Below are positions 1 through 63,272 of a DNA stretch of 64,000 bases, one piece after another. The notes under the pieces are model-generated. The model had not been told where the DNA came from, made no database searches, and saw only the letters and a program-made list of their open reading frames with translations. Numbering within the stretch: position 1 is the stretch's first letter; every line of letters starts with the position of its first letter. A program made the position numbers and the translations under genes. Source of the DNA: Myxococcota bacterium (GTDB lineage Bacteria; Myxococcota_A; Polyangia; Polyangiales; JANWZI01); the NCBI GenBank assembly GCA_025054695.1, contig JANWZI010000005.1:3838-67837 (forward strand). The letters are read 5' to 3'.

Positions 1-133
1 CTGAGGCGGAGCTCGAGTCGGGCTGCAAAACGGATCCCGCACGCGAGCGCGAGCCTGAATTCGGTGCCGAGTCCGAGCCTGAGCCAAAGCCCGCTTCAGA
101 GGCCGAGCCCGAGTCTGACTCGGAGCCCGACGA
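1..133 (+). repeat. Period-6 (NCS-GAG)n array, copy R0, cut by the window edge
   Basis: GAG-phase units from nt 3 and a clean run at 63-132 (gag tcc gag cct gag cca aag ccc ... gag ccc gac). Possible head remnant gag tcg ggc tgc at 15-26. Confidence 0.7.
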
Positions 134-726: not shown

Positions 727-1746
727 GTGCGAGGCGGCGACGACAACGTCATCCACGTCACGTTCGGGCGCGGGGGCGGCCGGCGGCGCGTTCCGGCCGC
801 TGGCGGCGCCGCCGCTTCGAACGAATCGCGCGATGCCGCGCGGCCGACGGGCTCGGCGGAGGGTGATCCGCTCGCCGCGCTGTACGAGACGAACGAGGTC
901 GCGCGTCTGTTCGGCATCCCCGCGGGTCGGCTGCGGGCATGGGCACGCTCGGGCTTCATCGTGCCGAGCGTCGCGCGCGGCCGGCGCCGCCACTACACGT
1001 TCCAGGACCTCATCGCGATTCGCACGGCGCGCGGCCTGCTCGAGCGTGGCGTGTCCGTGCGCGCGGTGCGTCGCGCCGTCGACGCGCTGCGAGCCAGCCT
1101 GCCGCGCGTCACCCGTCCGCTTTCGGAGCTTCGCGTCGTCACCGACGGTCGCACGGTCGTCGTGCGCGGACCGGGCGGCGCGTTCGAGGCCGAGACCGGG
1201 CAGCTCGTGCTCGACTTCGACGTGGGCAGCCTGCGCGACGAGGTCGTACGCGTGCTGCGGCGCGACGACGGCGGCCGCCGGCGCCAGCAGGCCTACACGC
1301 TGTATCTGGAGGGGTGCAAGCTCGACGAGGACGCGGCCACGCTCGAGCGCGCCGAGGAGCTGTACCGCGAGGCGCTGCGCGTCGATCCGACGCTCGCGTG
1401 CGCGCTCACCAACCTGGGCAACGTGCGTCACCGCCGCGGCGCGCCGCACGAGGCCGAAGAGCTCTATCGGCAGGCGCTGCGCATCGACGCGGCTCAGCCC
1501 GAGGCTTGGTACAACTTGGGCTACATCGCGTTCGAGCGCGGCCAGTACGAGCAGGCGGCGGCGCATTTCCGCACCGCGATCGGCCACGACCCGGGATTCG
1601 CCGACGCGCACTTCAACCTCGCGATGACGCTCGAGGAACTGGGACGGCATCGCGAGGCCGTCACGCACTGGCGCACGTACCTGCGGCTCGAGCCACGCGG
1701 TCCGTGGGCGGACATCGCGCGGCGCCATCTGGGACGCGACGGCTGA
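727..1746 (+). CDS. MerR-type HTH protein with C-terminal TPR repeats
   Basis: C-terminal 340 aa of ORF 64..1746, in-frame GTG at 727. HTH: [26 protein letters not shown]...[19 protein letters not shown]: [57 protein letters not shown]. Confidence 0.75.
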
Positions 1747-1774
1747 AGTGCACGGTGGGTGACGAGTCGCCACC

Positions 1775-1970
1775 GTGCCCATTTCGGAGTCGGAGTCGGA
1801 GTCCGACGTCGAGACCGAGGCGGAGTCGGAGTCCAAGTCTGAGTCCAAGTCCGACACCGAGCTCGTGACTCAGAGCGAGTCGGAGCCCGAATCGGAGACC
1901 GTGCCCGAGCCCGAAACCGTGACCGAGTCCGAGTCCGAGACAGAGTCCCAGTCCGAGGCCGAGTCGGCGC
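1775..1970 (+). repeat. Period-6 (NCS-GAG)n array, copy R1 (about 30 units)
   Basis: tcg gag tcg gag tcg gag tcc gac gtc gag acc gag ... Only the Glu frame is open, as a 71-aa ORF 1775..1990 with a GTG start. Confidence 0.9.
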
Positions 1971-1986
1971 TCGGCCGTGATGCCGC

Positions 1987-3246
1987 TTGACCGCCACAGC
2001 CGCGCGGCCATGCTCGCGGCCCGGAGGCGCCGTGTCCGAGCCGTTCTTTTTCACGTGGCGCGCGCAGCAGGGGGCGCGCGGGATCGAGATCACGGGCGGC
2101 GAGGGCGCCTGGTTCACCGTCGCCTCGGGCGAGCGGTGGCTCGATTTGGGCAGCCTCATCTATCAGGCGAATCTCGGCCACGGCCGACGCGACGTGGTCG
2201 AAGCCATCTGCGCGCAGGCCCGGCGTCTTTGCCTGACAATGCCCGTGGCCGTCTATCCGGAAAAGCGTCGGCTCGCCGAGCGGCTGCTCGCGCTCGCGCC
2301 GCGCGGTTTTTCGAAGGTTTTCTACACGCTCGGGGGTTCCGACGCGAACGAGAACGCGCTCAAGATCGCGCGACTCGTCACGGGGCGGTTCAAGGCGCTC
2401 GCGCGCTACCGCAGCTACCACGGCGCGACGATGGGCGCGGTGACGCTGTCGGGCGACTGGCGCCGGCCGCCGGTCGAGCCGGGCCTGCCGGGAATCATTC
2501 ACGTCGACGACCGCGACGCCACCGACGCCGAGGCATTCGTGCGTGCGCTCGAATTCGAGGGGCCGTCGACGGTGGCCGCCGTCTTCGTGGAGTCGATCGT
2601 CGGTGGCAACGGCGTGCACCGGCCGCCGCCGGGATACCTGCGGCAGTTACGGCACGCGTGCGACCGGCACGGCGTGTTGCTCGTCGTCGACGAGGTGCTC
2701 GCGGGCTTCGGGCGGACCGGCCGCACCTTCGGGTTCGAGCACGAACCGGGGCTGGTGCCCGATCTCATCACGTGCGGAAAGGCCCTGACCGGGGGATACG
2801 GCGTGCTCGGCGCGGTGCTCGTGCACGAACGGGTCGCCGCGCACTTCGAGACGCGGCCCCTGGTGGCCGGGCTGACGCACTACGCCCACCCGCTCGGTGT
2901 GGCCGCGGCCCTGGCTGCGCTCGACGTCCTGGAGCGCGAACGACTGGTCGAGCGCGCGGCGGGCCTCGAGCCGGTTCTCGCGTCCGGGTTGCAGACCGTC
3001 GTCGACGCCTGCCCCGCCGTCGCGCGACGCGCACGGGCGGTGGGGCTGCTCGGCGCGGTGGACGTCGACCTGGACGCCTCGGGATGGGACCGGCTCGAGG
3101 CCGCGCTCGTCCGACGCCGGATCCACGTGCATCTGCAGCGCAAGGTGGGCGCGATCGTCGTCGCTCCGCCGCTCGTCATCGCGGAGCCGGAGCTGCGCCA
3201 CGGCCTCGGGCTGCTGGCCGAAGCGCTTCGGGAGGTGGCGTCGTGA
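1987..3246 (+). CDS. class III (PLP-dependent) aminotransferase
   Basis: [42 protein letters not shown]. Start uncertain (TTG 1987 or GTG about 2031). Confidence 0.85.
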
Positions 3247-3977: not shown

Positions 3978-4615
3978 TGCCGTGGAGTCGCGAGCAGATG
4001 GCCGAGCGAGCCGCGCGGGAGATCCCACCCGGCTCCATCGTCAATCTCGGCATCGGGTTGCCGACGCTGGTCGCCGATTGCATCCCGCCCGACGCCGACA
4101 TCTGGCTGCACACCGAGAACGGCATCCTCGGCATGGGGCCGTTTCCGTACGAAGGCGAGGAAGACCCGCAGATCATCAACGCCGGCAAGCAGACGGTCAC
4201 GATCGTGCGCGGCGGCTCGACCTTCGACAGCGCGCTCTCGTTCGCGATGATCCGCGGCGGCCACGTCGACGTGACGATTCTCGGGGCGATGCAGGTGTCG
4301 GCGGCCGGCGATCTCGCCAACTGGGCGATTCCCGGCGGCAAGGTCATGGGCATCGGCGGTGCGATGGATCTGGCGAGCGGCTCGGGATTCATCCTCGCCA
4401 TGACCACGCACGTCACGCGCGAGGGAGAACCGAAGCTCGTGGCCGAGTGCACCTATCCGCTGACGGCGCGCCGGTGCGTGCACCGCGTGCTGACGGATCT
4501 CGGGCTGTTCGCGTGTGGGCCGGAAGGGTTCCGGCTGCTCGAGCTCGCCCCCGGGGTCTCGCTCGACGAGGTGCGCCGCAAGACCGGAGCGCCCGTGCTC
4601 GAGGGCCGCCCGTGA
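3977..4615 (+). CDS. 3-oxoacid/acetate CoA-transferase subunit B
   Basis: SIVNLGIGLPTLVA, ENGILGMGP, GGAMDLASG. ATG 3977 overlaps the A-subunit stop by 1 nt. Confidence 0.9.
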   Translation: MPWSREQMAERAAREIPPGSIVNLGIGLPTLVADCIPPDADIWLHTENGILGMGPFPYEGEEDPQIINAGKQTVTIVRGGSTFDSALSFAMIRGGHVDVTILGAMQVSAAGDLANWAIPGGKVMGIGGAMDLASGSGFILAMTTHVTREGEPKLVAECTYPLTARRCVHRVLTDLGLFACGPEGFRLLELAPGVSLDEVRRKTGAPVLEGRP

Positions 4616-5067
4616 GCGCCGTCGAACGCACCCTCGAATCCGTCCCCGACGACGAGCGTGTCCTGTTCGAGGGCCGGCCCGCGGCCATCGCGACGGTGGG
4701 GCAACTGCTGCTCGTGATCGCGACGGTCGGCCTGGCGTGGATCGCGCTGTGGCTACGGTCGCTCGCGCGTCGCTACAAGATCACGACCGAGCGGATCGTC
4801 ATCGAGACGGGCCTGCTGTCGCGGCGCCTGGAGCAGATCGACCTGTATCGCATCGAGGACTACGTCGTCGAACGGCCGTTCGGGCAGCGGCTGCTCGGCA
4901 CCGGCAACCTCGTCGTGCGCAGCGGCGATCGCACGAGCCCGCAGATCCGAATCGAACGCGTGCGCACGGACGTCGTCGCGCTCTACGAGTCGCTGCGGCG
5001 CGCGACCGAGGCCGACAAGCGGCGGCGCGGCGTGCGGCTGATGGACGTGACCGGGCCCGTGGGCTGA
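4612..5067 (+). CDS. membrane PH-domain (YdbS/bPH_2-like) protein
   Basis: TM segment LLLVIATVGLAWIALWL, then YKITTERIVIETGLLSRRLEQIDLYRIEDY. GTGA overlap with the upstream gene. Confidence 0.7.
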   Translation: MSAVERTLESVPDDERVLFEGRPAAIATVGQLLLVIATVGLAWIALWLRSLARRYKITTERIVIETGLLSRRLEQIDLYRIEDYVVERPFGQRLLGTGNLVVRSGDRTSPQIRIERVRTDVVALYESLRRATEADKRRRGVRLMDVTGPVG

Positions 5068-5087
5068 CGCGTGTCCGGTCCGGCGCG

Positions 5088-5250
5088 GCGGACTCGGACT
5101 CGGGCTCGGTCTCGGACTCGGTCTCGGACTCGGAGTCGGTCTCGGACTCGGAGTCGGTCTCGGACTCGGGCTCGGACTCCGGCTGGGACTCCGACTCGGG
5201 CTCGGACTCAAGCGCGACCTGCGAACCCGCCGTCGCGACCCGGGCACCCG
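5088..5250 (-). repeat. Period-6 array, copy R2 (GAG sense on minus strand) with degenerate head
   Basis: ggactcggactcgggctcggtctcggactc... over 5091-5210, including an 18-nt higher-order duplicate. Weak head-like gacggcgg segment toward 5250, directly after the stop of the 5261..6151 gene. Confidence 0.85.
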
Positions 5251-5260
5251 CCCTGAGAGA

Positions 5261-6151
5261 TCAGCCGCCGAGGTCGAGCGCGGCGCGCAGCGCGTCGAGT
5301 GCCGTGGGATGTTGAAAGGCGTACCCGGAGTGTTGCAGACGCCGGGGCAGCACGCGCTGACTCGACAGCAGCATCTGCTGGGCAGCCTCGGCACCCAGCG
5401 CCATTCGAAGCGCGAAGGCCGGTACGGCGAACAAGGCCGGGCGCCGAAGCAAGCCTGCCAGCATGCGTGTGAACTCGCCATTTCGCACGGGCTCCGGGCA
5501 GACGACGTTGAGGGGGCCGTCCAGGGCCGGCTCCGCGAGCGCGTGACGGATCGCGCCGACGGCGTCCGCCAGCGAAACGACGCTCATCCACTGCCGCCCC
5601 GAGCCGATCCGGCCACCGAGCCCCGCGCGAAAGACGGGCACCATCCGCGCGAGCGCGCCGCCATGCCGCGCGAGCACGATGCCGAAGCGAGCGTGCACCA
5701 CGCGCACACCGGCCTCGCGCGCCGGATCGGCCGCCGCCTCCCAGCGCGCGCACAGCTCCGCCAGAATCCCCTGACCCGGCCCGCTCGCCTCGTCGAGCTC
5801 TTCCTCGCCCCGGTCGCCATAGTAACCGATGGCCGAGGCGACGATCAGAACGCGCGGCCCATCGCGTATCGACGCGAGCGTCCGGGCGACGAACGCCGTC
5901 GTCTCGACCCGGCTGCGCACCAGACGCTGCATGCGCGCCTCGGTCCAGCGCCCCGAAGCCACGTTCTCACCGGACAGATGGACGAACGCTCCGATGCCCC
6001 GAAGCGCGTCCGCGTCGAGTCGTCCGGCGTAAGGATCCCACCACAACCCCGAGCGCGTCCGATCGCGCACGAGAACGAGCGCACGCTCGCCCAGCGCGTG
6101 CACGAGCGCGCTCCCGATGAGCCCTGAGGCGCCGCTGACGGCCACACGCAT
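5261..6151 (-). CDS. TIGR01777/YfcH-like NAD-dependent epimerase family protein
   Basis: MRVAVSGASGLIGSAL Rossmann motif and a C-terminal DUF1731-like end (SQRVLPRRLQHSGYAFQHP). ATG at 6151. The ORF stays open upstream through array R3 to 6415. Confidence 0.8.
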   Translation of the reverse strand: MRVAVSGASGLIGSALVHALGERALVLVRDRTRSGLWWDPYAGRLDADALRGIGAFVHLSGENVASGRWTEARMQRLVRSRVETTAFVARTLASIRDGPRVLIVASAIGYYGDRGEEELDEASGPGQGILAELCARWEAAADPAREAGVRVVHARFGIVLARHGGALARMVPVFRAGLGGRIGSGRQWMSVVSLADAVGAIRHALAEPALDGPLNVVCPEPVRNGEFTRMLAGLLRRPALFAVPAFALRMALGAEAAQQMLLSSQRVLPRRLQHSGYAFQHPTALDALRAALDLGG

Positions 6152-6202
6152 GTGCCGCGCACGCTGCCACGATTGACAGTGCGGCACCAGAACGGGACGT
6201 GA

Positions 6203-6415
6203 CGGTCTCGGACTCGGGCTCAGGCTCGGACTCGGGCTCGGAATCGAGCTCAGGCTCGCACTCGGTCTCGGTCTCGGGCTCGGGCTCGGGCTCGGTCTCG
6301 GACTCGGGCTCGGACCCGGACTCGGGCTCAGGATCGGACTCCCGCTCGGACGCGTAGGATCCGGATTGGTGTGGCGGCTCGACGAAAAGTGCGCCTGAAG
6401 TAACGTCGATGCCAT
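6203..6415 (-). repeat. Period-6 array, copy R3, with indel-bearing head
   Basis: Tail at 6203-6350 (ctcggactcgggctcaggctcgga...). Head at 6351-6415 reads on the minus strand atggcatcgacgttacttcag...ccaatccggatcc, alignable to the R4 head with gaps. Confidence 0.8.
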
Positions 6416-23314: not shown

Positions 23315-23350
23315 CGCGCGTTGCGATAGCACACCCCCGTCCACGCGTAT

Positions 23351-23529
23351 CGGGCTCGGTCTCGGACTCCGGCTCGGACTCGGACTCGGGCTCGGGCTCC
23401 GACTCGGACTCGGGATCGGATTGGGGATCGCAACACCATTGCGCCACGTCGAGCAACGTGACCGCCGCCATCGGACTCGGACTCGGGTCTCGGGCTCCGG
23501 CTCGGACGCTGAACCGAGACTCGGACTCA
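23351..23529 (-). repeat. Period-6 array, copy R4: tail, conserved head, and a second short tail
   Basis: Tail at 23351-23426. Head at 23427-23471 reads on the minus strand atg gcg gcg gtc acg ttg ctc gac gtg gcg caa tgg tgt tgc gat. More units at 23472-23529. Confidence 0.9.
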
Positions 23530-31735: not shown

Positions 31736-32827
31736 ATGCACCGGAGCCGTGGAGCGAGCACAAATCTCTGGGGCGTATGGTTCGTCGTGGCGGTGGGTTG
31801 CGGCGGAGCCGCAGAGCCGCCCGCGCTGCGTGATGCGGGCGACGATCCCGCCGACGCCGCCCGCGACGCGACCGTTCCGGGGCCCGACGCCCAGATGGGC
31901 GTCGATGCCGACGCCGAACGCGACGCGACGATTTCGGCGGACGCCGGAGGCGCGCCGGATTCGGGAGGAACGCCGTCGGTGGATCCGGCCGCGAGGGGTC
32001 CGCACCGCGTCCACGTACTCGAGGGCGAGGTGGTCCGGGAGCGGCGCCGCATTCCGGTGGCGGCCCACACGCCGGGCGGCGTCGATCGCGCTCCGCTCGT
32101 GGTGTTCCTGCCCGGGTTCCAGCTCACGTCGGCCGACTATCTATCGACCGTCGAGCACCTTGCGACTCACGGTTTCGTCGTGCTGCGCGCCGATCCGCCG
32201 GCGAGCCTGGTCTCCGTCGATCACGTGCAGATGGCGGCCGACGTGCGCGCGGTCGTCGGTTGGGCGCTCGAGGCCGACGGGTTGCTCGCCGGTCGTGTCG
32301 ATCCGGACCGCGTCGGGCTCGCGGGACACAGTCTCGGCGGCAAGGTGGCCGCGATGGCGGCGGCCGAGGATCCGCGCATCGGCGCGGTCTTCGGCATCGA
32401 CCCGGTCAACGCCGGCAATCCGATCACGGGCTTCACCCCGTCGTTGCCCGACATCCTTCCCGAGGTCGTCGCGACGCTCGACATGCCGGTGGGCTTCGTC
32501 GGCGAGACGACGAACGCGGAAGGCTTCGGGCAGCCGTGCGCGCCTCGCGACGGCAACTTCCAGCAGTTCTACGCGGCGGCCACCGGTGCGCCGTGGGCGG
32601 CCTCCTGGGAGATCGCGGGGGCCGACCACATGGACTTTCCCGACCGCTGCGGCCTGCTCTGCGGCGCCTGCACGCCGGGTACGGCCGATCCGGCGCGCGT
32701 CCGCGCGATCACCCGCACGCTCGCGACGGCGTTCTTCCGCCGCCACCTGCTGGGGCAATCCGCGATGGAGGACTGGCTCACAGGGCCCCGCGTACCGGAC
32801 GGCGTCACCACGATGCACCGGCCCTGA
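31736..32827 (+). CDS. alpha/beta-hydrolase lipoprotein (chlorophyllase/dienelactone-hydrolase-like)
   Basis: Lipobox VAVGCGG. Nucleophile elbow GHSLGG. Its TGA stop abuts the first triplet of the R5 head. Confidence 0.7.
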
Positions 32828-33052
32828 TAGCGGCGGTCACGTTGCGTGACGTGGCCGAGGAGTGTTGCGAGTCCGAGCCCGAGACCCAGTCCGTGTCCGT
32901 GTCCGAGCTCGAGCCCGCGCCTGAGCCCGAGACCGAGTCCGAACCTGAGTCCGAGCCCGAGCCTGAGTCCGAGGCCGAGCCAGAGCCCGAGACCGAGTCC
33001 AAGTCAGAGTCCGAGACCGAGACCGAGCCTGAGTCCGAGTCCGGGCTCGAGC
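32827..33052 (+). repeat. Period-6 array, copy R5, with conserved head
   Basis: Head at 32827-32871: ata gcg gcg gtc acg ttg cgt gac gtg gcc gag gag tgt tgc gag. About 30 units follow. The Glu frame stops at 33081. Confidence 0.9.
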
Positions 33053-33500: not shown

Positions 33501-33755
33501 GTCGAGTCCGAGACCGAGTCTGAACCCGAGTCCGTGTCCGCGCCCCAGGCCGCTTCCGAGACCGAGTCCGAGGCCGAGCCCGAGTAAAACGCGCGATCGA
33601 CCCACCTGGCCGGCGCAGTGATTCCGAGGCCGCGTCGGAGTCCGAGCCTGAGACCGGGTCCGAGATTGAGCCTGAGCCTGAGTCCGAGTCCGAGACGGAG
33701 TCCGAGTCAAGTTCGGAGACCGGGCCCGAGCCCGAGGCGGAGATGGAGACCGAGG
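33501..33755 (+). repeat. Period-6 array, copy R6 (two blocks, 33501-33587 and 33623-33755)
   Basis: gag tcc gag acc gag tct gaa ccc ... gag ccc gag taa. The second block is in a different phase: tcc gag gcc gcg tcg gag tcc gag cct gag acc. Confidence 0.85.
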
Positions 33756-41386: not shown

Positions 41387-41435
41387 CACGGTCTTGGGCC
41401 CTCCCAACGTAGCCGGTCCTCGCATGCACCACCGC

Positions 41436-41605
41436 GGACTCGGGCTCGGGCTCGGTCTCGCGCTCGGACTCTGACTCGGTCTCGGACTCGACTCGGGCTC
41501 GGCCTCGGTCTCCGACTCGGTCTCCGACGCGGTCTCGGACTCGGGCTCAGGCTCGGACTCCGGCTCGGTCTCGGGCTCGTACGTGCACCCCGAACCGCCC
41601 GTCAA
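41436..41605 (-). repeat. Period-6 array, copy R7, with deletion-variant head
   Basis: Minus strand reads ttg acg ggc ggt tcg ggg tgc acg tac gag ccc gag acc... The head lacks the central ~18 nt. TTG overlaps the mog stop (TTGA). A 1-nt indel inside the tail changes phase. Confidence 0.85.
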
Positions 41606-43109: not shown

Positions 43110-43245
43110 TGCCGCGGGGCGCGGTTCTGCGAAGGAATGCGCTGACCGAGATGATGTTGACTCCGCCGCCGAGGCCGAGACCGAGGCCGAGACGAAGTCC
43201 CAATCCGAGCCCGAGCCCGAATCAAAGGCCGAGTCCCGGCCCTAG
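43110..43245 (+). repeat. Period-6 array, copy R8 (short, degenerate head; antisense to both neighbours)
   Basis: gcc gag gcc gag acc gag gcc gag acg aag tcc caa tcc gag ccc gag ccc gaa tca aag gcc gag tcc cgg ccc tag. Confidence 0.75.
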
Positions 43246-47507: not shown

Positions 47508-47715
47508 TCCGAAACCGACCTCGAAGCCACCGCGTCGGAGTCCAAGGCCAAGACCGAGTATGACGGCGGCGGTCTCGTTGCTCGACGTGGCCGAGGGGTG
47601 CTGCGAGCCCGAGCCCGAGACTGAGCCCGAAGCCGAGACCGAGACCGAGACCGAGACCGAGTCCGAGTCCGAGACCCTGCCCAACCTCGAGAGCGAATCC
47701 GAGGCGGAACGATGA
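47508..47715 (+). repeat. Period-6 array, copy R9, best-preserved head plus complete 51-codon Glu-frame micro-ORF
   Basis: Short pre-tail at 47508-47558. Head at 47560-47607: atg acg gcg gcg gtc tcg ttg ctc gac gtg gcc gag ggg tgc tgc gag. Tail to 47700, TGA at 47713-47715. Peptide: MTAAVSLLDVAEGCCEPEPETEPEAETETETETESESETLPNLESESEAER. Confidence 0.9.
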
Positions 47716-53895: not shown

Positions 53896-54046
53896 CTCCG
53901 AGGTCGAGACCGTGCCCGAGGCCGAGACCGAAACCGAGGCCGAGACCCAGGCTGAGACCGACTCCGAGATCGAGGCCTGGTCCGAGCCCGAGTCCGACTC
54001 CGAGTCCGAGACCGAGCCCGAGTCCGAGTCCGAGTCCGAGACCCAG
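53896..54046 (+). repeat. Period-6 array, copy R10
   Basis: gag gtc gag acc gtg ccc gag gcc gag acc gaa acc gag gcc ... gag tcc gag tcc gag tcc gag acc cag. Glu-frame ORF 53912..54100 starts GTG CCC, like R1. Confidence 0.88.
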
Positions 54047-63065: not shown

Positions 63066-63272
63066 GGTGGTGGCGGTCACGTGGGTCGCCCGTGCGGCGC
63101 GGGGTATTGCGCGCTCGAGTCGGAGTCGGTGACCGAGTCGGAGTCGGAGACCGAGGCAGACGCCGAGCCCGAGCCCGAACCCAAGTCCGACCCAGAGCCC
63201 GGACCCGAGGCCATGTCCGTGTCCGAGTCCGAGCCGGAGACCGAGGCGGATTGCGTATCCGAGTCCGAGCGG
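63066..63272 (+). repeat. Period-6 array, copy R11, with indel-bearing head (antisense to both neighbours)
   Basis: Head at 63066-63116: gtg gtg gcg gtc acg tgg gtc gcc cgt gcg gcg cgg ggt att gcg. Tail: gag tcg gag tcg gtg acc gag tcg gag tcg gag acc gag gca gac gcc gag ccc... Confidence 0.88.

Follow-up and report, generated by a model that had tools for sequence, protein, structure and literature searches.

The tandem array R1, which occupies the gap between two genes of an uncultured myxobacterium, in all likelihood is non-coding and belongs to a family of intergenic tandem arrays found throughout the genome, and the constraint on it would act on the nucleic acid and not on a translated product (probability of about 0.88). 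At the level of the family, the arrays are a non-coding repeat held at the nucleic-acid level, at the 3' ends of genes, and the codon-like look of their hexamer unit is a coincidence of register. In each unit, five conserved bases, C-C-G-A-G, would form a core to which one nearly free spacer base, N, is added. The original prediction had favoured selection on an acidic disordered peptide, or on a strict NCSGAG nucleic-acid motif, over neutral slippage; its rejection of neutrality and its nucleic-acid motif stand, and the acidic peptide does not.

The R1 array and its genome-wide family

R1 extends from 1784 to 1969 on the plus strand of the 64-kb window, that is, the whole stretch of DNA that was analysed, and is intergenic, the upstream gene ending at 1746 and the downstream one starting at 2032. 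Our recount gives 31 in-phase NCSGAG units, with T16/A8/C4/G3 at position 1, C in 28 units at position 2, C20/G8/T2/A1 at position 3, and G, A and G at positions 4, 5 and 6, each in 27 of the 31. The six positions vary unequally (chi2=23.1, p=3e-4). The earlier hand tally of 30 units agrees with these counts to within one unit, and several of its accompanying observations are confirmed: one Ser is written AGC, the open reading frame 1775-1990 starts with GTG and terminates 7 codons past the end of the array, and the other two plus-strand frames are not open (stops at 1840-1842 and 1866-1868). The list of changes from GAG (GAC, GAA, AAG and CAG) was incomplete, as the commonest one, GTG (Val, 3 units), is missing from it.

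At the 5' edge of R1, two degenerate in-phase units, ACCGTG and CCCATT (1772..1783, plus strand), carry the GTG "start" of the 71-aa ORF. R1 and R10 had been described as beginning the same way, with GTG CCC; this shared beginning does not hold as a conserved start context, being the frequent variant unit ACCGTG followed by a unit that starts with CCC. In R10 the string is formed by units 3-4, inside the array, and the CCC-starting unit is CCCGAG there and in R1 units 20-21, and the degenerate CCCATT at the R1 ORF start. Genome-wide, NCCGTG is a frequent variant unit (TCCGTG 151, CCCGTG 77) and array edges bear 2-3 degenerate units. Directly 3' of the upstream stop codon, a perfect 9-bp inverted repeat can be read from the sequence, GCACGGTGG / CCACCGTGC (1750..1778, plus strand), the 3' arm of which includes the GTG at 1775-1777. 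This hairpin folds with -26.5 kcal/mol (z=-1.66), which is not significant against shuffles, and a perfect stem of at least 9 bp is present in only 0.7% of array 5' flanks. By eye on the alignment, about 65% of the bases in the hairpin region align with the head motif of the family, described below.

Both neighbours of R1 lie on the plus strand, in frames that differ from that of the array ORF. The upstream gene (727..1746, stop TGA at 1744-1746) encodes a protein with a MerR HTH and TPR; the downstream one (2032..3246) encodes a class-III aminotransferase in which positions 11-403 of the PF00202 profile are matched from residue 18, so that the gene is complete without the array. We judged the 71-aa ORF over R1 (1775..1990, plus strand) to be no gene. 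Its sole Pfam match is PARP (procyclin-type, PF05887), which at 18.4 bits against a cut-off of 100 is sub-threshold and compositional. R1 gave no match in Rfam, and none in promoter and terminator scans.

Other members of the family are found along the whole window. They comprise an array of 11 units (66..131, plus), one of 20 units in a convergent gap (5093..5212, minus), one of 24 units in a divergent gap (6207..6350, minus), R10 with 25 units (53897..54046, plus) and one of 26 units (63114..63269, plus). An array of 11 units at 43168..43233 (plus) is antisense to both of its neighbour genes. The conserved head motif accompanies 12 units at 23349..23479 (minus; head 23422-23479) and another 12 at 47556..47673 (plus), while in the member at 32820..33051 (plus) the head (32820-32877) begins on the stop codon of the gene 31787-32827 and is followed by 31 units. 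At 33501..33754 (plus), two arrays of 14 and 22 units, mutually out of frame, are separated by a 38-nt spacer module, and the 25-unit array at 41433..41581 (minus) contains an internal 1-nt deletion, a phase shift that would break any reading frame. In the co-directional gaps of this window, 7 of 8 arrays are oriented with the genes, a point against the non-coding reading.

A motif scan found 872 arrays in the genome, with about 16,000 hexamer units in total, which amount to 2.3% of the genome and 15% of its intergenic DNA. Gene positions came from a codon-statistics caller and not from curated annotation; on these calls, 751 of the 782 placed arrays (96%) are intergenic. The share of gaps with an array is 48% for convergent, 23% for divergent and 16-18% for co-directional ones, and the median distance of arrays is 45 nt to the upstream stop and 129 nt to the next start. 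Orientation within co-directional gaps is 189 same versus 171 opposite (p=0.37). When array flanks were clustered, the largest cluster was contaminated by array-like sequence, and the small clusters alone were used.

The reading as an acidic peptide

The codon-like pattern invites the idea that the arrays encode, as small genes or as gene segments, acidic disordered (Ser/Thr/Pro/Ala-Glu)n peptides, with substitutions that reflect selection on the peptide. The open frame of R1, with its GTG start and its stop soon after the array, fits this idea, and so does the Ser-Glu frame being open in 93.3% of arrays. Nevertheless, the five other frames are open in 93.0, 54.9, 88.2, 93.5 and 97.0% of arrays, four of them in 88-97%. 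The Ser-Glu frame contains 60 stops, as does the reverse TCS-GNC frame, and the -2 frame contains 27. The Ser-Glu frame also has a codon log-odds of 0.339, close to the 0.319 of real genes, a value driven by GAG. Synonymous usage goes against it: NCC makes up 79-86% of array codons versus 27-37% in real genes, where NCG is preferred; AGC accounts for 1.1% of Ser codons in arrays versus 30% in genes, and GAA for 5.5% of Glu codons versus 19%. The reverse-strand Ser-[DGAV] frame, which the original prediction had named as the competitor, proved equally open and obtained a synonymous fit of 0.534, versus 0.271 for Ser-Glu and 0.403 for real genes, to the detriment of the Ser-Glu claim.

A further point that could look like stop avoidance is the scarcity of TAG at positions 4-6: it is less frequent than AAG, and than CAG by a factor of about 3 (49 versus 160). 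However, the strand-mirror change, C-to-A at position 2, is just as rare (0.4-0.7%), although in most units it creates no stop. Start and stop signals do not distinguish the Ser-Glu frame from its controls: a stop within 10 codons follows 11.9% of arrays versus 5.1-14.5% in five control frames, and a start codon is available to 68.5% of arrays versus 48-78% in control frames, so that 31.5% have no possible start. Orientation relative to neighbour genes is random, as the counts in co-directional gaps indicate, and eleven arrays adjoin the stop of a gene that lies on the antisense strand of the Ser-Glu frame. At junctions no longer than 6 nt, a single phase shift is a multiple of 3, against 33 that are not. 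For R1 itself, the supposed GTG start is a variant unit within the 3' arm of the hairpin, and the neighbour genes are complete in other frames.

The head motif was also weighed as coding sequence. A subset of the arrays carries this conserved head of roughly 45 nt, which begins on the stop codon of the neighbour gene, and in three copies of the window it reads in frame as MTAAVSLLDVAEGCC-, a point in favour of the peptide. We rejected it as a leader peptide: across 143 heads, variability by codon position is 0.17/0.15/0.17 (recounted from the per-column table), with no third-position excess; indels of 1-2 nt (20) outnumber those of 3 or 6 nt (4) and shift the frame, and 5 of the heads contain in-frame stops. 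Most heads are without ATG, the in-frame codon after TGA being ACG or ACA in 94 of the 143. Hairpins in heads or flanks were rejected as a general feature as well (flank MFE of -16.4 and -15.2 versus -16.4 and -15.4 in shuffled sequence), and mismatches in the head stem are mostly one-sided.

Taken together, we consider translation of the arrays as a class very improbable, and a minority of the copies may be translated. Length changes in multiples of 6 between strains, one of the proposed checks, would not separate coding from hexamer slippage. As regards allelic material, self-BLAST of both flanks revealed no second allele of the R1 locus in the assembly, and the collections searched yielded no near-identical contigs. 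The tests that do separate the peptide from the nucleic-acid repeat are orientation, synonymous usage, a mirror-site control for stop avoidance, control frames and the comparison of paralogues. The resemblance to a gene would come from the register alone, in which the free base falls at "codon position 1", a half-free base (C, sometimes G) at "position 3" and the four most conserved bases elsewhere. High-GC genomes have long open frames everywhere, and a free base at that position makes a hexamer repeat mimic a Ser/Thr/Pro-Glu gene; automatic gene calling will probably turn such arrays into hundreds of spurious acidic peptides in annotations.

A conserved core and a nearly free base

For the pooled tally we used 533 zero-indel period-6 arrays detected by Tandem Repeats Finder with no motif given, 532 of which belong to the family (9,648 units). 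This motif-blind set was chosen because a reversed-sequence control for array counts is invalid, as the reversed motif matches itself after rotation. Positions 1 to 6 differ from the majority base of their array in 0.501/0.046/0.151/0.038/0.077/0.102 of cases (532 arrays; chi2=11,508), a spread of about 13-fold, and the equal variability that was proposed as a refutation of the original prediction is not what the pooled copies display. N, which in this genome is about T.43/C.28/A.21/G.09, is nearly independent between adjacent units (identity 0.340 versus 0.325 when shuffled). Position 3 is G in 16% of T-units versus 6-9% of other units. T-units would be the main place where this C/G choice is tolerated, since TCCGA and TCGGA form a reverse-complement pair.

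Paralogous copies give the same picture. The comparison of 11 paralogous cassette ends gives an identity of 0.894 for the flanking gene and of 0.97/0.82/0.97/0.31/0.85/0.88 for the array positions, the value of 0.31 being that of N; we regard the core as conserved to the degree of the gene beside it, or better. Array length across paralogous copies ranges from about 7 to 36 units. Head motifs diverge by about 16% per site, core positions by 4-10% and N by 50%.

These data bear on a rival explanation, namely that the arrays are ordinary neutral microsatellites, produced by recent slippage of one hexamer and decaying by random point mutation without constraint. Short head-to-tail units, very different lengths between paralogous copies and degenerate units at the edges are all in its favour. 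The same is true of the linked variants within unit types, such as T-units with G at position 3, which are expected of whole-unit copying, and of CCGAG being neither enriched nor avoided outside arrays (O/E 0.95), a value that also lacks the avoidance seen with restriction sites. Against neutrality are the 13-fold difference among unit positions, the paralogues in which N is fully randomised while the core stays at 0.82-0.97, and a core that diverges less than the heads. Adjacent units are, moreover, barely more alike than shuffled ones, unlike fresh slippage products. In a MAG of Kofleriaceae, another family of the phylum, the core is kept and N is different. Neutral decay is therefore very improbable, and its rejection on the basis of the 13-fold spread, the randomised N of the paralogues and the core kept elsewhere supports the nucleic-acid alternative.

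A possible explanation for the pattern under nucleic-acid constraint may be that arrays lengthen, shorten and reshuffle through gain or loss of whole units, by slippage or unequal exchange, from a pool of unit types, and that units without the CCGAG core would be removed or not propagated. This could happen if some factor recognises the core, on DNA or at the 3' ends of transcripts, or if copying depends on the core. In this sense, we infer that a sequence-specific reader or copying process acts on the arrays. The puzzle that they pose is that 15% of the intergenic DNA keeps five of six bases while the sixth is randomised even between recent paralogues. The reader or copying process, once found, could reveal a new gene-end element in bacteria without classical terminators.

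As for the identity of such an agent, a multi-copy gene drew our attention. It encodes a PF05635/TIGR02436 four-helix bundle, which we take to be the Avd family, and such arrays come right after it on its sense strand; each of its 11 observed copies has an array directly 3' of the stop codon, and in two other families (G022, G031) arrays are interspersed with relatives of the gene. One reading of this association is that a DGR-like, adenine-mutagenic reverse transcription generates the arrays from a (CUCGGA)n template with the help of Avd-family genes, the lone minus-strand adenine being the hypervariable base. The minus-strand unit, CTCGGN, does have a single hypervariable site with A as the major base (0.44), and its spectrum, A.44/G.28/T.20/C.08, resembles the outcome of bRT-Avd at template adenines, which converted to sense is A.48/T.22/G.18/C.12 (PMC7826257). 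On the other hand, no PF00078 reverse transcriptase was found in this genome (assembly 92.6% complete), and the array-adjoining reverse transcriptases of other genomes are, judged from their motifs, of group II intron and retron types. The Avd-like gene has no invariant template array behind it, the arrays there being themselves variable; hairpins are not enriched beside arrays, and PF05635 genes are multi-copy in array-poor genomes too (e.g. G274). At the variable site of the Kofleriaceae MAG, T and not A predominates on the minus strand, which largely refutes the DGR-like reading, and we give that reading next to no credence. A broader proposal, which we hold as doubtful but clearly less so, is that a dedicated putative trans-acting factor keeps the arrays by reading or regenerating the core on DNA or transcript 3' ends, in either orientation and in several patchy Myxococcota lineages, with the PF05635 gene as a candidate partner. 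If true, the arrays would constitute a new kind of gene-end nucleic-acid platform, neither junk nor peptide.

Other genomes and related systems

The arrays have a patchy distribution: of 301 Myxococcota genomes, only about 5 contain pattern matches by the thousand, 2 more contain hundreds, and the remainder stand near background. The Kofleriaceae MAG has an identical core, N = A.45/G.35/T.14/C.07, 32 of 33 arrays in intergenic DNA, and 4 same versus 11 opposite orientations in co-directional gaps. The core is common to other Myxococcota lineages and the preference at N is not. Around R1, the two neighbour genes are not adjacent in any of 40 relatives, all from other families. Exact-protein look-ups of the flanking gene and the 71-aa ORF returned no match, and the relatives recovered in a metagenome scan do not exceed 63% identity and carry no array at the orthologous site. 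A full-text search of the literature yielded no description of these arrays, which is no proof of absence.

Some known systems resemble the family in part. The (G/U)AG triplets bound by TRAP in Bacillus trp leaders are likewise spaced GAG triplets, in at least 10 repeats within an otherwise unstructured stretch, whereas the arrays number in the hundreds and are found at 3' ends in both orientations; a TRAP homologue (PF02081) was found in none of five array-rich genomes, with Bacillus subtilis as positive control. Borg tandem repeats (bioRxiv 10.1101/2022.05.18.492195) exemplify coding repeats that give rise to acidic disordered regions. With these and with the procyclin-type Glu-Pro repeat (PF05887) the arrays share a unit length divisible by 3 and a Glu/Ser/Pro/Thr-rich translation, but they lie outside ORFs and have no frame, start, stop, strand or codon-usage signal. 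REP/REPIN/BIME elements, which are mobilised by RAYT Y1 transposases, similarly occur in great numbers as short extragenic sequences in either orientation, and concentrate at the 3' ends of genes and in convergent gaps. In contrast to REP/REPIN, the arrays are neither palindromic nor self-complementary, their flanks fold as shuffled sequence does, and Y1_Tnp/RAYT (PF01797) is absent from this genome (G000, 92.6% complete) and from the most array-rich relative (G180).

A close parallel is found among the cyanobacterial STRR heptamer repeats, which are dispersed intergenic short-unit tandem arrays of bacteria. The name STRR occurs in PMC2670836 and PMC7593598. Like them, the arrays exist in hundreds of copies, have a unit of 6-7 nt in tandem, are confined to intergenic DNA and are lineage-specific. 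They differ from STRR in their unit, NCCGAG, in their phylum, Myxococcota, in having one unit position essentially free and five held, in their strong preference for gene 3' ends and convergent gaps, and in the conserved head on a neighbour stop codon that a subset of them carries. As an STRR-like class, understood as tandem 6-7 nt arrays restricted to the intergenic DNA of one lineage, the definition covers the 872 arrays described here.

R1 and the hexamer array family

R1 (1784-1969, + strand, 31 in-phase hexamers) is a typical member of a highly abundant, gene-end-associated family of arrays of tandem N-C-C-G-A-G units, in which CCGAG (positions 2-6) is the core and N is position 1. We consider, with a probability close to 0.9, that these arrays are non-coding and that the constraint on them acts at the nucleic-acid level. 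The original prediction had opposed an acidic disordered peptide or a strict NCSGAG nucleic-acid motif to neutral slippage; the nucleic-acid option agrees with our results, in that the codon-like pattern is real and arises from constraint on CCGAG, with a single base left free.

The assembly that contains the window comprises 4.27 Mb in 261 contigs, with 71.4% GC. R1 lies in a gap of 285 nt between a MerR-HTH/TPR gene (727-1746, +, TGA stop at 1744-1746) and a class-III aminotransferase gene (2032-3246, +), and its Ser-Glu frame, the + frame that reads units as (Ser/Thr/Pro/Ala)-Glu, differs from the frames of both. The Pfam model of the aminotransferase is matched from residue 18, so no N-terminal extension is needed. 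Our recount of R1 agrees with the earlier tally to within one unit: position 1 is T16/A8/C4/G3, position 2 is C in 28/31 units, position 3 is C20/G8/T2/A1, and positions 4, 5 and 6 each carry the majority base in 27/31. This unequal variability is significant within R1 alone (p=3e-4). The ORF described at 1775-1990 is also real, beginning with GTG, encoding 71 aa and ending 7 codons past the array; the remaining two + frames are closed. The list of GAG changes, given as mostly Asp, Glu, Lys and Gln, was inaccurate, as the most frequent replacement in R1 is GTG (Val, 3 units), a non-conservative change. GTG CCC is indeed common to R1 and R10, a similar array at 53897-54046 (+), but it is not a similar start; it is the variant unit ACCGTG followed by a unit starting with CCC. 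In R10 it corresponds to array units 3-4 (ACCGTG CCCGAG), while the R1 ORF start consists of ACCGTG plus the degenerate unit CCCATT at the 5' edge of the array, and ACCGTG is a common variant unit of the family. The R1 GTG (1775-1777) is part of a perfect stem of 9 bp (1750-1758 / 1770-1778), on its 3' arm, and no Shine-Dalgarno-like sequence was found upstream of it. Rfam, promoter and terminator scans of R1 gave no match, and its predicted fold is marginal (-77.5 kcal/mol, z=-1.93). TCGGAG units occupy mostly the 5' part of R1 and TCCGAG units mostly the 3' part; these could pair, TCGGA being the reverse complement of TCCGA.

A motif scan of the genome found 872 arrays (median length 16 units, 2.3% of the genome), 14 of them inside the window. 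Tandem Repeats Finder, run with no motif supplied, provided an unbiased set of 533 zero-indel period-6 arrays, 532 of which belong to the CCGAG family. The fractions of units deviating in this set from their own array's majority base are 0.501, 0.046, 0.151, 0.038, 0.077 and 0.102 at positions 1-6, confirming on pooled copies that variability is not equal among the six positions. Array edges are sharp: a single unit takes core identity from 0.89 down to 0.35-0.47, and background (0.32) is reached within five; the flanks fold no better than shuffled sequence. Two strand-mirror changes in the C-S-G core, C2-to-A and G4-to-T, occur 3-6 times less often than the alternatives at those sites; at positions 3 and 6 this mutation type is not rare. 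No published description of CCGAG arrays was found in a full-text literature search.

Placement and coding tests

Coding and divergence tests support neither an acidic peptide nor simple neutral decay for the R1 family. The peptide reading fails on location, orientation, synonymous usage, openness, starts and stops, frameshifts and stop avoidance. With genes called on array-masked sequence by a codon log-odds model, 751 of the 782 placed arrays were intergenic, and arrays account for 15% of all intergenic bases. Gaps holding arrays stand at 48% for convergent, 23% for divergent and 16-18% for co-directional arrangements. In co-directional gaps, 300/360 arrays are closer to the upstream stop (median distance 45 nt, vs 129 nt to the next start), and 189 share the direction of the genes while 171 oppose it (p=0.37); the agreement with gene direction of 7/8 arrays within the window is not general genome-wide. 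Distances to the stop are concentrated at 37-38 nt in arrays of the same direction as the gene (the head class, described below) and at about 6, 9, 28 and 34 nt in those of the opposite direction.

Synonymous usage in the arrays is the reverse of that of real genes. NCC represents 79-86% of the four codon boxes, whereas genes favour NCG (55-68%); Ser is encoded as AGC in 1.1% of array codons vs 30% in genes, and Glu as GAA in 5.5% vs 19%. Position 3, previously read as a variable third codon position, is therefore not free but held at C. Arrays are open in the Ser-Glu frame in 93.3% of cases, the five other frames giving 93.0, 54.9, 88.2, 93.5 and 97.0%. In the Ser-Glu frame, 11.9% of arrays meet a stop <=10 codons further on, vs 5.1-14.5% in the five control frames, and a start is available ahead of the upstream stop in 68.5% vs 48-78%. 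The possibility that the reverse Ser-[DGAV] frame (TCS-GNC) explains the data equally well found support, as both frames have 60 stops across arrays and TCS-GNC shows the better synonymous fit (0.534, against 0.271 for Ser-Glu and 0.403 for real genes), while Ser-Glu is ahead only on overall codon log-odds (0.339 vs -0.145), because of GAG. Neither frame is singled out. Between adjacent same-strand segments <=6 nt apart, 33 phase shifts are non-multiples of 3 and one is of 3, the array at 41433-41581 being a frameshifted example in the window. CAG outnumbers TAG at positions 4-6 (160 vs 49), but stop avoidance was rejected as a coding signal: C-to-A at position 2, which mirrors G4-to-T on the other strand, yields Tyr, His, Asn or Asp and no stop in most units and is equally rare (0.4-0.7%), so the TAG deficit is a property of the C-S-G core.

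Retention of the core and the head motif

The rejection of neutral slippage is upheld by an N that is free between neighbouring units and by a core retained in paralogues and in a Kofleriaceae MAG. The N of one unit barely predicts that of its neighbour (identity 0.340 vs 0.325 after within-array shuffling), unlike fresh slippage products, and no overall higher-order periodicity was found in the arrays. As an internal clock for array divergence, we used a multi-copy gene of the genome under study that encodes a 111-aa four-helix bundle (PF05635/TIGR02436). Pairwise identity of the last 66 nt of its copies is 0.894 (n=11), and in 11/11 copies an array (CGGNCT)n follows after the TGA and two bases. 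These paralogous arrays have about 7 to 36 units, and identities by position over units 2-7 are 0.97/0.82/0.97/0.31/0.85/0.88, the 0.31 of N being the value for random draws from the N frequencies. Divergence is about 16% per site in head motifs, 4-10% at core positions and 50% at N. The Kofleriaceae MAG JAGPCY01 (G180) carries 33 arrays in 152 kb, with core retention of C2 0.965, C3 0.84, G4 0.99, A5 0.98 and G6 0.93 and an N composition of A.45/G.35/T.14/C.07 vs T.43/C.28/A.21/G.09 in the genome under study. These comparisons show a retained core and a free N whose composition depends on the lineage. G at position 3 occurs in 16% of T-units vs 6-9% of other units, which indicates that whole units are copied. 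As TCCGA is the reverse complement of TCGGA, either C or G at position 3 of a T-unit leaves the pentamer intact on one of the strands, and position 3 may be half-free for this reason. Our preferred reading is that the arrays undergo unit-level turnover together with sequence-specific retention of the core.

A conserved head motif of ~45 nt, cTGAC(A/G)GCGGCGGTCACGTTGCT(C/T)GACGTGGCCGAGGGGTGTTGC, precedes several arrays, a subset of the family, in fixed register and in phase with the array (translation '..AAVTLLDVAEGCC'). A profile search found 143 copies genome-wide, including 32820-32877, 47556-47613 and 23422-23479 (-) in the window. The head was rejected as a leader peptide: a per-column recount gives variability by codon position of 0.17/0.15/0.17, with no third-position excess, indels are of 1-2 nt in 20 copies vs 3 or 6 nt in 4, in-frame stops occur in 5/110 ungapped copies, and the first in-frame codon is ACG or ACA, not ATG, in 94 copies. 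A TGA occupies a fixed place in 72/132 copies and is often the upstream gene's stop codon, as in gene 31787-32827. The head is a dispersed DNA repeat whose copies are diverging; its exact 28-mer is absent from genomes of other species. With moderate confidence, the R1 5' flank is probably a diverged head, judging from its stop-to-array distance (37 nt vs 38 nt for the head) and about 65% agreement when aligned by eye; the profile search for the head did not detect it. A second recurrent module, TAAAACGCGCGATCGACCCACCTGGCCGGCGCAGTGAT, lies between two arrays at 33585-33622 of the window and opens with an in-phase TAA or TAG, and similar sequences follow arrays on contigs C133, C63 and C166.

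Distribution and candidate partners

We counted array-pattern matches in 301 Myxococcota genomes. Thousands were found only in the genome under study, G180, G152, G167 and G194, and hundreds in G240 and G266, the remainder being near control level. The five high-load genomes span four families and their relatives are near background, a patchy load that suggests bursts or a mobile cause. The array-rich relatives are named as Kofleriaceae, Sandaracinaceae and Polyangiaceae MAGs. Single perfect arrays were found in many unrelated GC-rich bacteria, and those may well be coding.

A dedicated trans-acting reader or generator of the core, for which the PF05635 protein is one candidate, seems unlikely. 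No TRAP homologue was found in five array-rich genomes, no Y1/RAYT transposase in the genome under study or G180, and CCGAG avoidance outside arrays was not seen (O/E 0.95). Loci with the PF05635 gene and arrays, all outside the window, are C261:66248-66916, C194:32523-33188, C201:31751-32300 and C222:387-1082; the full copies examined have arrays on both sides. Seven copies outside the window lie at contig ends and, as this applies to most copies, the true copy number is higher.

PF05635 is the protein family to which the DGR accessory factor Avd belongs, and the membership of an array-flanked gene in it raises the idea of a DGR-like origin of the arrays. In this sense, the minus-strand unit CTCGGA has a single adenine, which is the variable site, and the N spectrum is similar to the bRT-Avd spectrum (PMC7826257). 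However, a DGR-like origin fails: no PF00078 reverse transcriptase was found in the assembly under study, which is 92.6% complete, the reverse transcriptases near arrays in other genomes belong, by their motifs, to the group II intron and retron types, no invariant template was found, and the major base at the minus-strand variable site in G180 is T. G180 units are mostly ACCGAG and GCCGAG. On its contig C43, an array of 395 bp (5998-6392) lies in a convergent gap, 15 nt past the stop of a reverse transcriptase judged from motifs to be retron-type (L094, ORF 4337-5983). In genomes G022 and G031, from two other families, PF05635 matches are interleaved with array matches.
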